A stretch of 64,000 bases of DNA, taken from Escherichia coli. Its GTDB lineage: Bacteria; Pseudomonadota; Gammaproteobacteria; Enterobacterales; Enterobacteriaceae. The position numbers were made by a program. The DNA lies in assembly GCF_030013595.1 (NCBI RefSeq), contig NZ_CP122769.1; one strand, written 5' to 3'. Shown here one piece after another: positions 39,001 to 48,000 of this stretch; the first letter of the stretch is position 1, and every line of letters starts with the position of its first letter.

Positions 39001-42000
39001 TGAGCAGCAGCTAGGACACTGTCAGCCGCTGGCAGATTTAACCCCCTTAATCGCCACACTGGGGTTGCCTCCTGAAGTTGGGTTTCAGTTCTGGGCTAGG
39101 TTGCTAACTCTGCTCCCATAATTCGTAGTGGGCCTACTCAAGAGATTAACACCTCATATCTTTAGACTGGACTGACGACAACGATTCACAGTTAGGAAAC
39201 GTAAATCAGCACACCGGTGAGATAGATTTTAGGGTCTAAGCAAGAAATAGGGTAGGCGTGAAGATTCATTAATGGAGCTCATAACGTCAAAGCGTAGAGA
39301 AGTCGACAAGAATCGTGGTTTAAAAAGAATGAGCATTAGGTATGGACTAGAGAGTCTGAGCTCTCATCTGCAAGTTAAGCTCACAAAAAATCATAAAAAA
39401 GTAAACAAACATTAGCTTAGGATTGAAACAAAGGATAGAATTGTACGTATAACAATGAAATGGACGCATTATGCGTAAAGTTTACATATATGCGTAAAAG
39501 TCGGTTTTCAGTGCAAAAAGGTCATAACCATGAATTTACTTGAAAAGATCGCCCTCGTTGGTCAGCGCATGAAAAGCGAGCAGATTTCTCTTAAGGAATC
39601 TCTGATGGCTTCATCAAGAGTATCTGTTTCTGATGATAGTGTTGATGGTGTTGATAGACTGATCTACAACCACTGTTTAAATAAAAAAAATCTCTCTGAT
39701 TTTTTTGGGAAGTCACGAGTAACGTTCAATAAAATACTTTCGGACTTAGAAGAAAAAGAAGTTGTTGGTGCACCTATTTATCAAAACAAAAATCATCTTT
39801 ACACCCGCTGGGATGTTCAAAAAATAATGGATGCCCTGGGTTATCCCAAGTACCGCGATCATTACTTTAGCAGAGCTATTGTTACTCAGAATCATAAAGG
39901 CGGTACAGGGAAAAGCACTACATCTGTAGCTTTAGCAGTAGCAGCTGCTTTAGATCTACAACTGAATGCACGTGTATTAATGATCGAATGGGACCCACAA
40001 GGTTCGATTGGAAGCAGCATGATTCAAAGTGTCTCAGAAGATGATGTCTTCCTTACAGCAATTGATGCAATCCTTGGAATTTATGAAGAAAATTCTGAGT
40101 ATAAAAAATATTTAGATTCAGGATTCTCTGAAGAAGAAATCATCACTAATATGCCTTTTTCAACGCATCTGCCAAACTTGGACGTGATAACGGCATTTCC
40201 GACAGATGCTCGTTTTAAAGATAAATACTGGCAATGTTCTAGAGAAGAACGAACGTCTTTGTTACTACGTTTCAAGGAAGTTATCTTACCGGTACTGAAG
40301 CAGAACTATGATTTGATTATTATAGACACTCCACCTGAAGATTCACCTTTGATCTGGGCTGCTGACGAAGCGGCCGATGGGATTCTTGTCGCAGTGTCAC
40401 CACGTGAATATGATTACGCCTCTACTACAGACTTCATGCTTACAATAAGTGAAAGGTTTAAACAATCACCAAGTAAGGGCGATAATTTAAAATGGTTCAA
40501 AGTTCTTGCTGTCAATGTTGATGACAAAAGTCCATATGAAAGAATAGTTTTGGATAAATTAATCAGAACTGTTCAGGACCTTTTGATGTCCGCTAACATA
40601 AAAAATTCTGAAGCATTTAAGGCAGCTGCTTCCAAAGGGCGTACAGTGCTTGATATCAAAAAATCAGAGGAACTTTGTTCCGCAAAGCAACTTGATGTCG
40701 CAGAAGAATCTGTATTACAGGTATATCAACAATTTATAAATGAAATAAAAAGTTTTTCAGCTAAGCAAGGAGTTAACGCATGAGCGATGAGCAACATATC
40801 GGGAATGATAAATCTCGATATTTAAACGCACCAAAGCGGACAGAAGTCGGTCACCGTTCAGGTCTTGCGGGTTTGAAAACAGCACCTCGCATAAAAAAGT
40901 TATTCACTCTTCATAAGGGCCGAAGACTTGAAGCGGAACATGTGATTGTTCCAGCCCAGAGAGTGGAGAAGGAGACCTTAGTCCATCCAGCAAACCCACG
41001 AAATCAAGAAGCCCTTACAGATTATTCTGTTAGAGATATTCTTAAGCAGATTGAAGAAAGAGGGGTCGATACCGAAGGGATCGCTGTAAAAAGAGATGGG
41101 GTTTATTTATTAATAGAAGGAAGTCGCAGACGTTTCTGCTGTATAAAGGCAGAAAAGGATCTCCCCCTGTGGGTACTACCGGATGAACTAACCGAAGATG
41201 ATATAAATTCAATTATATCCGCAGCACAAACATCTCGAAAATTTTCATATAGAGAAGTTGGGTTTCAATTTATCAAGAAAATGGAAGAAAAGGGATTTTC
41301 TACTAATGAAGAACTCGCAGCATATCTTGGGATTAGTCATGTATCGGTAGCCAAAAGAATCCAGGCGGCCCGTATTGACGAAACATTGATCTCTTTATTC
41401 CCGGATTATGAAGGAATACCGAACTCCTATTATAGTCGCTTGTCTCGTTTACAGAAATATGTGCAAAAAAATCTATTTCCTTTAGATGAAGTAATAGATA
41501 ATGTTAAAGAGGAAACAAAAGATTTAGACATTGGAGATCTCCAAGTTGCCCAAAAAGTTGTAATGGAGAAAATCACACAATCTGTGGAAAGTGTTTGTGA
41601 AAAATCTTATTCCACAAAATGGGAAACAAGTGATCTTATTACTTTTGATAACAAAGATAAGTATGCAAGAATCAGTAAAAACAATACTGGAAGAAAAATT
41701 CGCATTGAATTCAATAGGATAAGTGCGGGTTTTATTAAGGAGCTAGAGGAGTTCATAAAAGAAAAATTAAAAGTATCAGAATAAATATTGAACTGCATCT
41801 TTATGATGCAGTTCATATGATTTATATTTTTAATTTCTTGTTATATTAATATGGGGTGTGCGCAGGTTCAGACATATAAGGTCTTAGTTCTATATGAACA
41901 GAAGCGCCATTCCCATCATTTACTACGTTTAAAGGTGCTTTGCCCGGCAATGACATAGTTGCAACGTCAGGTCCAGAAACAGCAAAATTATTTTCTGCTG

Positions 42001-45000: not shown

Positions 45001-48000
45001 CTTAATGAAAGAAACGAATTAGTTCCCTTGCTCACACAAAATAGTTTTGTTCCAGATTTCCGTGTTCGCCATGAGGGTCTCAATCCTTTTAACTATCTTA
45101 TTGATGGGCTGGAAAGGTTTTCGCATCACAGCGAATCTAGTAACTCACTGGAATCGACTGATGTATCTCACCAATACGATGAAATTAGCCGGTTAAATGT
45201 TCACCATGCACTTCATGCTTCTGGTTTAGTTCCTCAGGATGTTCACCTCTTTGTTACTTTACCTCTTAGCCAGTTCTATACTGCTTTAGGGGAAACGAAT
45301 ATTGAAAATATTCAGAGAAAAAAAGATAACCTGATGAAACCAGTTGAGCGTTATCTTGACGGTAAACGCTATTCTTTCAACGTTTTGTCTGTGACTGTTT
45401 TCCCTGAATCTTTACCAGCTGTGACCCGGGCAGATGAAATTGAGGATATTGCTTCATTTGAATCAAGTTTGGTAATTGATCTTGGTGGTACTACTCTTGA
45501 TGTTGCAAGTATTACTGGGCAATTAGAACAGATTTCGAAAGTAAAAGGTTTTGACCGTATTGGTTGTTCTATTGTTTACGATGAGATCAGCAGGTATCTT
45601 GAATCTGAGAAACTGAATACGAGTAATGCTTACATTCATCATCTTGTTGATAATCGTCATGATAAATCAGCTTTGAAGGTTGCAGAGGACAAGCGTGACG
45701 GTGTTTTTGATGCGGTAAACTCTGCGGTACAGAAGTTGCAAAGTAAAGTAATCAGAGCGGTTACACAAGTCGAAGAGAGGCCTCATAATGTTTTCCTTGT
45801 TGGGGGAGGTTCATATCTCATCGAAACAGCTATTCGTAAACATTTTGAAACGGCTAAAGTTATCATGGTAGACAATCCGCAGTTCGCATTATCTTTGGCA
45901 ATTGCTGATACTATTTATTCAGAATAATGAGCTAGAACATGGCTAAAAACCCTATCTCAAATAAGGCAGATAACGACCGGATTCAGATCCGGTCTTTCTG
46001 GATATCCGAAAGAAAAGCACCCTATGTTTATAGTTTCTTGAAAAAAACAGAACTTTCTCATAGGGGTGACCAACTGGATTTAATTAGGTCGGCTATTAGT
46101 ACCGGGTTGGTATTGAATAATTTATTTCCTGACTTGGCAAATTTTATAAATGGTTTAAACGAAAGATTAACACTTGCAGATCTTAATAGGTTTCTGAATG
46201 ATGGAAATACTATAGATACTGAACCTAAGCCTCCTATTAATGTATTGCTAGAGAATGTCTTAGATCAAAAGTTTAAGGAGTATTTAACACCTCTACAATT
46301 AGATAATTCAAAGCAGGATTCTGTTTCTGTAAAAGAAACCTTCCTTGTACAAAAGGAACATGCCTGCTTTGGTGTGAAGATTGAAAATGAGGGAAGCGAT
46401 ACCTCTATACCATCTGAAAGCCCACTTTCTTCAGATGCATCCAAAATTTCAAAAGAAAAGTCCATTTCCGCTGTGGTGCCAGTGCTAGAAAAAGTATCGG
46501 ATGAAAATCAAACCGCCTCCATAAGCATAAAATCTAAAGCTAAGGCAAACAAGCGACTGGCAACTTTGGCAAGATAGGTGAGAGACAGTACAATCGACTT
46601 CTGAGTTCCAACTTGTCTTACCAGGAAAGCCAGCATACTTGCTGGCCTTTTTTTTTGTTATAATAATTTCAGGCTTCACCTGGGTATGTAAAATTACTGT
46701 TAATGAAACGGTATTTTAGGTTAATTTGGGTGCTGTTACAGGAAGTGCGGATTTTTCCTAAATTTGTAAAAAACCTAAGAATTATCTTAATAAATCTGGT
46801 ACTTAATTATTATTTTACTTATAAAGTCTCTGTGCTTTAATGGTTATGTAAGGATTTTTTGATACCCTTATACCCGATGGACCTAAGGTCACTGACAACG
46901 ATGTTCATGTAGAATCTTCGTTTCTGTAATCCCTTTTGTTCTTGTCCCAAATGTTTGATTATTATAATAAAGGCTGATCGAATGCTATCTCGCAACTCAC
47001 TAATACATGGTTTACGCCGAGACCAGTTAATCGGAGTTCTGACTATTTCAGAGTTTCCGGTAGTTATGGTAGAAAGCCACTTCATTCAGTCTGAGGTTAT
47101 GGGAATAAAACCCGTAATTTTTAATATTGATGAGCTTCTTGTTTCTATATCCCCAATTTCCTCTCTTAAGTTCGATTGGGAGTGGGCCCCAGTTGATACA
47201 ATACTCATTGAAGTTATCATTCCACCTGTAGAGTCAGACCTTGTAAGTGCAGAAAATGACTTCCTCCGTGATTCTGGTATCGGCCATATCCAGTGCGAGC
47301 CTGGCGGAGCATCAATACGACGTACAGTTACCTTCGTTGGTGGAATAACCGCTGATAACTTACTGTATCAGTTGAGGCTTATGTGCGTAAGTGCGTTAAA
47401 ACTTTTAGGAGAGGAACTGGGGGATGAAGTCTAAGATTAGATATGTTTTATCTGGTTTTGTTGTGATATGTGCATTTGCTGGAGTTTATAAAATCCTAAA
47501 CAATGTTCCGGTTAAACCTGACCTTTTGGACTTCACTGGAAACACATTTAAAAAGACATCACTCTTCCTGCCATGTGATAAAAGCTCGCCTTCTTTAAAC
47601 ATTAAAATTGCTGATAACGAGAAAATCGTGATCAACGGCATCGCTTCAAAAGTAACTTTTGTTGAAAAGGCTGACCCCGTCAAAAGCCCTGGTTTTTGTG
47701 ATGATCTTGATCTAAACAATTCTCGCCTTGTACATACGGCATCTTACAGCATGGTGATTTCTGAAACCAAAACAGGATATACACTCTCAAATTTCAAGCA
47801 TCTTGCCGATGATGAATCATTAGGTGGTATGTGGTTTTATCAAAAGTGACTTTTTATATGGCAACTTCAGACTTCTCTCTTAAAAACCATAATGTAAAAG
47901 CTTTTGGTCAGGATGCAGCACTTGTCATTGAGATGAACAATGAAGATGTTAGCTCATCAAAACCTTCACCTTTTTCAAATGAGATTGATAATTATTATCT

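Follow-up and report, generated by a model that had tools for sequence, protein, structure and literature searches.

Two partition systems of different types, ParABS and ParMR, in the Tra2 region of an IncHI2 plasmid, with a candidate Par1 centromere upstream of parA

A 64,000-nucleotide (nt) stretch of Escherichia coli DNA (contig NZ_CP122769.1 of assembly GCF_030013595.1; this whole stretch is referred to as the window) was analysed for its plasmid partition genes. A reading of the sequence alone had placed two different partition systems, a type Ia parAB and an actin-type parMR, within 7 kb of each other. When the open reading frames (ORFs) of the segment 37000-49000 were listed, all four par ORFs were recovered on the + strand with unchanged coordinates, and the family assignments of ParA, ParB and ParM held. 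The double partition locus occupies positions 39530-46577 of the window, beginning with the start codon of parA and ending with the stop codon of parR (aa, amino acids):

39530-40783, + strand: parA, 417 aa, type Ia large Walker-type partition ATPase with an N-terminal extension
40780-41784, + strand: parB, 334 aa, predicted P1-type centromere-binding protein; overlaps the parA stop by 4 nt
44890-45927, + strand: parM, 345 aa, actin-like segregation ATPase
45939-46577, + strand: putative parR, 212 aa, separated from parM by an 11-nt gap

The 10-kb segment 37000-47000 was 100% identical to many conjugative plasmids of replicon type IncHI2A, e.g. pMS8345A, and 1084 PLSDB records from Escherichia, Salmonella, Enterobacter and others covered at least 80% of it. 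In the identical plasmids the locus is flanked by trhC upstream and by htdA and rsp downstream, and it therefore lies inside the transfer region Tra2. The order trhC, gap, parA, parB, four genes on the opposite strand, parM, parR, htdA was shared by pMS8345A, the IncHI1 plasmid R27 and the IncHI2 prototype R478, whose par gene order is that of the window. In R27 the minus strand reads trhC, a 3.1-kb gap, parA, parB, four genes, parM, parR and the counterpart of htdA, a transfer-repressor gene. The genes have the same order and orientation within Tra2 of the window, and both plasmids share the four genes between the modules as well as the long non-coding gap ahead of parA. The window and R27 proteins were 89% (ParA), 72% (ParB), 80% (ParM) and 42% (ParR) identical. 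This agreement bore out the comparison with the double partitioning of R27-type plasmids that was made in the earlier reading. According to a passage in PMC4489591, which cites Lawley & Taylor 2003, R27 carries two independent partition loci, the type I locus being the major and the type II locus the minor stability determinant.

On these grounds we are highly confident that this part of the window, in the Tra2 region of an IncHI2 conjugative plasmid, is a conserved double partition locus orthologous to Par1 and Par2 of R27, i.e. a type Ia ParABS plus a type II ParMR system. The pairing of parAB and parMR on IncHI2 plasmids is already known and belongs to the textbook IncHI backbone. Both modules are listed as IncHI2 backbone (PMC9599605, PMC10076803, PMC11628540), the IncH backbone has been described as including Par1 and Par2 (PMC11628540), and type I systems with a helix-turn-helix (HTH) ParB occur together with type II systems in 969 PLSDB plasmids (PMC13245405). 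The double arrangement being established, its confirmation adds nothing new. The par modules matter because IncHI2 plasmids, which depend on them for stable inheritance at low copy number, are major vehicles of mcr-1, mcr-9 and multidrug resistance.

ParA carries the deviant Walker A motif KGGTGKST at residues 123-130 (pattern KGGxxK[ST]) and matched the AAA_31 (2.3e-20) and CbiA (2.5e-10) families as well as ParA/RepA partition models. Compared with solved structures, it matched ParA2 of Vibrio cholerae (7NPD, 4e-37) and the ParA proteins of P1 and P7 (3EZ2, 3EZ9; approximately 1e-12); the score against the SopA model was 31 bits only. The alignments begin at residue 63 (P1 3EZ2) and residue 64 (7NPD), about 60 residues ahead of the Walker A motif, and ParA was therefore assigned to the large type Ia class. 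By its size and its N-terminal extension ParA is type Ia, and the extension is predicted to be the DNA-binding region serving autoregulation.

ParB contains an HTH domain, not a ribbon-helix-helix, and the P1 ParB C-terminal dimer domain (PF08775, 3.8e-11). Its residues 150-330 matched P1 ParB(142-333) in the structures 1ZX4 and 2NTZ, which are chains of ParB-parS co-crystals (4e-16), and an arginine patch, EGSRRRF, is present near the N-terminus. The Par1 proteins thus resemble those of P1 in the large, N-terminally extended ParA and in the domain composition of ParB, but the two ParB proteins are only 28% identical over 84% of the length.

Three further features in the vicinity of parAB bear on where ParB and ParA might bind:

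35620-39056, + strand: candidate Par1 centromere (parS array), 13 copies of ATTTAACCCCCTTAATCGCCA with 0-1 mismatch plus one degenerate copy at 38061, mostly 249 bp apart
39445-39495, no strand: candidate parA operator, four hexamers of the ACGCAT/ATGCGT type at 39445-50, 39464-69, 39471-76 and 39490-95
41789-41815, no strand: bidirectional terminator-like hairpin with an 11-bp stem, between parB and the convergent 129-aa gene

The array lies in the 4.3-kb gap between trhC and parA (35193-39529), which contains no annotated gene and has a G+C content of approximately 50%, compared with approximately 37-39% in the par genes and the backbone. Tandem Repeats Finder reported 12.6 copies of a 249-bp unit at 36060-39150. 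The 249-bp units were aligned, and a frame of 21 columns was slid over the alignment. The best-conserved 21-mer of the unit was ATTTAACCCCCTTAATCGCCA, with a majority fraction of 0.99 as opposed to 0.85 for the whole unit. Allowing at most one mismatch, this sequence was found 13 times in the 64-kb window against 0 expected, always in the orientation of parA. All copies are upstream of parA; none was detected in the window outside the array, including the region downstream of parB. The spacer 3' of parB measures only 61 bp and is occupied by the terminator hairpin, therefore it offers no room for a centromere.

The same 21-mer is present in R27, where 23 copies in the same orientation relative to parA are arranged in two blocks with a spacing of 52-54 bp, whereas the window has 13-14 copies at 249 bp. 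When the other conserved blocks of the 249-bp unit were sought in R27 they were absent, and the rest of the R27 unit is unrelated. Because one exact 21-bp core has been kept in otherwise unrelated units of different period, selection acts on the core. The core also resembles the centromere of P1. P1 parS, as annotated, reads ATTTCAA-GG-TGAAAT-CGCCA (A-box, inverted A-box, B-box TCGCCA), and the IncHI core reads ATTTAA-CCCCC-TTAAT-CGCCA (A-box, C-run, inverted A-box, B-box TCGCCA). The layout parallels the A2-A3-B2 segment of P1 parS (ATTTCAAGGTGAAATCGCCA compared with ATTTAACCCCCTTAATCGCCA): the A-box-like ATTTAAC corresponds to ATTTCAC/A in P1, and the inverted A-box abuts the B-box. This box layout and the B-box fit a ParB of the P1 type. 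A further relative, the Klebsiella michiganensis plasmid NZ_CP106839, encodes ParA and ParB proteins 64% and 48% identical to those of the window. Its motif AACAACCCCNNTGTTCGCA (AACAA-CCCCN-TTGTT-CGCA) has co-diverged and occurs 18 times upstream of parA (6478-8066) and twice downstream of parB (11378-11463), with 0.01 copies expected. In a Providencia relative neither the motif nor an array was found, so that not all members of this ParAB clade possess the array.

From these results the array, singled out in the sequence-only reading as a possible centromere or operator element and in fact larger than was implied there, is very probably the Par1 centromere: an array organised like sopC, built of P1-like sites to which ParB is predicted to bind, and located upstream of the operon. 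Its location speaks against this assignment. In the classical type Ia systems of P1 and F the centromere is downstream of parB, and the candidate site is upstream of parA. It has to be considered whether the array is instead a satellite-like repeat that evolves fast, or an element of regulation or incompatibility that binds another ligand, the true parS being elsewhere. Besides the atypical location, such an explanation could call on the polymorphic copy number of the motif (6 in the diverged IncHI2-like contig L007, 11 in R478, 13 in the window, 23 in R27) and on the other conserved blocks in the 249-bp units. However, it leaves unaccounted for that the 21-bp core alone is common, base for base, to the IncHI1 and IncHI2 arrays, that this core mirrors the box layout of the site bound by a ParB of the same type, and that the K. 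michiganensis plasmid has its own version of the motif on both sides of parAB. Moreover, the rest of the window holds no further copy of the motif, and the spacer 3' of parB is too short for a centromere. We regard this alternative as very improbable and retain the array as the candidate Par1 centromere.

The candidate differs from both classical models in its architecture. P1 has a single composite parS with an integration host factor (IHF) site downstream of parB, but the window has about 14 simple tandem sites upstream of parA and no evident IHF site. With the SopA-SopB-sopC system of F it shares a type Ia ParA and a tandem array of about a dozen repeats with one short site each, sopC consisting of twelve 43-bp repeats (PMC9178275). 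In F, however, the array lies downstream of sopB with a 43-bp period, and the motif and the ParB subtype described here are unrelated to sopC and SopB. As a speculation that we ourselves consider rather unlikely, Par1 may have a centromere of unusual, hybrid design, so far without an explicit description, in which P1-type A-box/B-box sites are set in an F-sopC-like tandem array (6-23 copies) upstream of parAB, and in which the period was remodelled (52 bp in IncHI1, 249 bp in IncHI2) around an unchanged 21-bp site. If this were true, the Par1 centromeres of IncHI1 and IncHI2 would be interchangeable, partition incompatibility between the subgroups would be expected, and the sites of a ParB loading array could be spaced freely. 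What may be mildly new is that a P1-like site of 21 bp has been explicitly defined, that IncHI1 and IncHI2 have kept it exactly although its spacing changed fivefold, and that cross-incompatibility of Par1 is predicted from it. The by-product is a precise and testable definition of the likely Par1 centromere. The 21-bp site could guide incompatibility-based plasmid curing, chromatin immunoprecipitation of ParB, and work on the effect that copy number and spacing of parS sites have on partition complexes.

Some properties of the array were noted in addition. Units 3-5 (36270-37018) are almost exactly repeated as units 6-8 (37019-37764), a duplication of approximately 748 bp; a shortened or degenerate unit starts at 37765, and another at 38001. 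The length of the array varies among IncHI2 plasmids, the trhC-parA gap of R478, with its 11 motif copies, being approximately 0.5 kb shorter. Each 249-bp unit contains three more conserved blocks, CTTGCTCCCATGATGCGAAATG, CTGATACAGATTAACGTC and ATGCCGGTCTGCCGACACC; all three are absent from R27, and only ATGCCGGTCTGCCGACACC recurs in L007 (seven copies). No Rfam match was obtained in the array at E <= 1, and the idea of an RNA gene was dropped; the short ORFs inside the array were dismissed as repeat artefacts. In the K. michiganensis plasmid a (GGAAGA)x14.5 microsatellite is located just upstream of parA (8626-8712).

Lying 35 bp upstream of the parA ATG, on the parA side of the array, the four hexamers make up a nested palindrome with its centre at position 39470, and the direct repeat TATGCGTAAA occurs twice within it. 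Of the sequence upstream of parA, this segment is conserved best in the window, L007, a further related locus (L008) and R27. R27 has a 30-nt inverted repeat at the equivalent place, and the operator palindrome, like the 21-bp core, is identical in the two plasmids. P1 also has a palindromic operator upstream of parA, which, according to the P1 annotation, is bound by ParA and occupies the equivalent position. We infer that the palindrome upstream of parA is the site of ParA autoregulation.

The second module encodes a clear homologue of the ParM (StbA) protein of R1/NR1. ParM contains the StbA_N domain (1.1e-66) and the ParM C-terminal domain (1.7e-60), and it matched R1 ParM (1MWK) at 2.7e-43. 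Its nucleotide-binding motifs are intact: DDGS (residues 27-30), DLGGTTLD (197-204) and GGGS (305-308). As in R1, a small gene follows immediately 3' of parM. The 212-aa product of this gene belongs to a small family confined to IncHI-like elements, the R27 member of which has been named ParR by one source. In the family alignment a conserved N-terminal domain of approximately 90 aa is joined through a variable linker of low complexity to a basic C-terminal tail, KAKANKRLATLAR, which is also conserved. The tail is similar to the C-terminus of R1 ParR (...KKNAMKLIN in R1, ...KAKANKRLATLAR in the window), but the R1 protein has only 117 aa, compared with 212 aa and a long variable linker in the window protein. 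PF10784, the family of R1 StbB/ParR, gave sub-threshold matches with 10 of the 14 members (best E 0.045). The R1 ParR sequence used for a direct comparison is 100% identical to stbB genes adjoining parM. In hhalign, residues 38-65 aligned to helix 2 of R1 ParR with an E of 0.0043 and a probability of only 8%. A low-confidence structural model placed a strand at residues 14-23, followed by helices. Position, domain layout and faint homology, a weak similarity with which no family test was passed, point to the 212-aa protein as the ParR of the module.

The region upstream of parM contains two features of interest:

44820-44848, + strand: likely parM promoter, with a predicted -35 TTGATA (44820-25), a 17-nt spacer and a -10 TATAAA (44843-48)
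44824-44839 / 44858-44873, no strand: imperfect inverted repeat, candidate ParR operator, TAATAGGTCACCATTA / TAATATGGTCCTATTA, 12 of 16 positions complementary, flanking the -10 element

The likely promoter was not detected by the promoter consensus scan; five diverged loci, R27 among them, share the sequence TGTTGA...TGTATAAA without change. The ACCAT...ATGGT pair within the inverted repeat is kept at its position in L007. In L008 it is changed symmetrically to ACCAA...TTGGT, which amounts to one compensatory event, and R27 keeps it imperfectly, as ACCAT...GTGGT with one mismatch to symmetry and equal spacing. Because the pair keeps its position across the loci, with a symmetric change in L008, the palindrome is a plausible operator for a dimeric repressor. 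The parM promoter region and ParR are, by comparison, far more diverged between the window and R27.

Several observations, together with the upstream position of the array, weigh against the interpretation of the locus as two partition systems. The putative ParR had no Pfam, NCBIfam or PDB match at threshold, and its AlphaFold model, built on a 14-sequence alignment, was unreliable, with a predicted local distance difference test score (pLDDT) of 49.8. The palindrome in the parM promoter, taken alone, is not above chance, since 56% of composition-matched shuffles of the 363-bp region gave an equal or better one. In the earlier reading it was a candidate centromere or operator element; the existence of the palindrome was confirmed, and the conserved pair lends slight support to an operator. 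No iteron array of the parC type was detected: in five loci no k-mer (k = 6-8) was repeated beyond chance upstream of parM, and in the window no tandem repeats were found upstream of parM or downstream of parR. The 11-bp iteron array that flanks the parM promoter in R1 is thus missing in the window. In addition, the assignments of all cis sites were deduced from the sequence.

A perfect 16-bp x 2.4 tandem repeat, TGCAAAACCATCATCA, is present in R27 (18771-18809 of locus L002), where it spans the parM stop and the parM-parR spacer. It was considered as a conserved parC and rejected, the parM-parR gap of the window being only 11 nt.

The failure to locate a Par2 centromere is the main ground for viewing Par2 as auxiliary or as partly different in role. 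In its strict form this view holds that only Par1 is a true partition system, and that parMR is mainly linked to conjugation, e.g. by positioning the plasmid or the transfer apparatus, with little or no part in vegetative segregation. The weak ParR-likeness of the 212-aa protein agrees with it, and so does the separability of the two modules. Relatives of this parAB were found with no parMR beside them, and the K. michiganensis plasmid, too, has none adjacent to its parAB. Conversely, in a Photorhabdus tasmaniensis contig (JASNMP010000008, 1549-9681) the four-gene cluster and parM-parR are kept, and no parAB was called upstream, therefore the parMR block can persist without an adjacent type Ia system. 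Two insertion sequence (IS) transposase genes are located in this contig 0.4-3.3 kb past the four-gene cluster. The related parMRC-like loci of SXT/R391 elements are found among transfer genes, and the type II module of R27 is only a minor stability determinant (PMC4489591). Even so, Par2 of R27 was reported to be functional in stability (PMC4489591, PMC13245405), ParM is strongly R1-ParM-like with every nucleotide-binding motif kept, and the putative ParR has the expected domain layout and the conserved C-terminal tail. A mainly conjugative role of parMR is in our judgement improbable. The interpretation as two partition systems was maintained; if R27 is a guide, stability should depend mainly on Par1, with Par2 in an auxiliary role.

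On this interpretation ParB dimers would bind each of the approximately 14 copies of the 21-bp site, spread over 3.4 kb upstream of parA. The ParB-site complex would stimulate the ATPase of nucleoid-bound ParA, by which the plasmid copies would be positioned, and ParA would repress its own operon through the nested ACGCAT/ATGCGT palindrome. In Par2, ParR would bind at or near the parM promoter and repress it, and through its conserved basic C-terminal tail would cap the actin-like ParM filaments that push the plasmids apart.

In pB171 the two partition loci are adjacent and divergent and share regulatory DNA. In the window, by contrast, 3.1 kb with four unrelated genes lie between the modules, which are both on the + strand, and the Walker system belongs to type Ia instead of type Ib. 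The likeness is that pB171, too, carries two partition systems of different types (Ib and II) on one plasmid (PMC13245405, PMC9800825).

Two more features complete the locus:

46629-46646, + strand: terminator-like hairpin with a T-run, which ends the parMR operon
41846-44526, - strand: four intervening genes encoding proteins of 129, 173 and 278 aa and a 315-aa calcineurin-like metallophosphoesterase; not partition genes; divergent from parM

The terminator lies in the spacer between parR and htdA (46578-46981 in the window). In several mcr-1-era IncHI2 plasmids ISApl1 is inserted in this spacer (10330-11304 in locus L010), and IS903B/IS903D have been reported there (PMC10076803). The spacer looks like a tolerated landing site for insertion sequences, and this tolerance among the relatives argues against an essential site between parR and htdA.

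The four-gene cluster is likewise situated between the par modules in R27, R478, L007 and L008. Three of its proteins (129, 173 and 278 aa) are of unknown function. One of the four genes probably encodes EexB, since an IncHI preprint places eexB, an exclusion factor reported to be localised in the outer membrane, between parA and parM.

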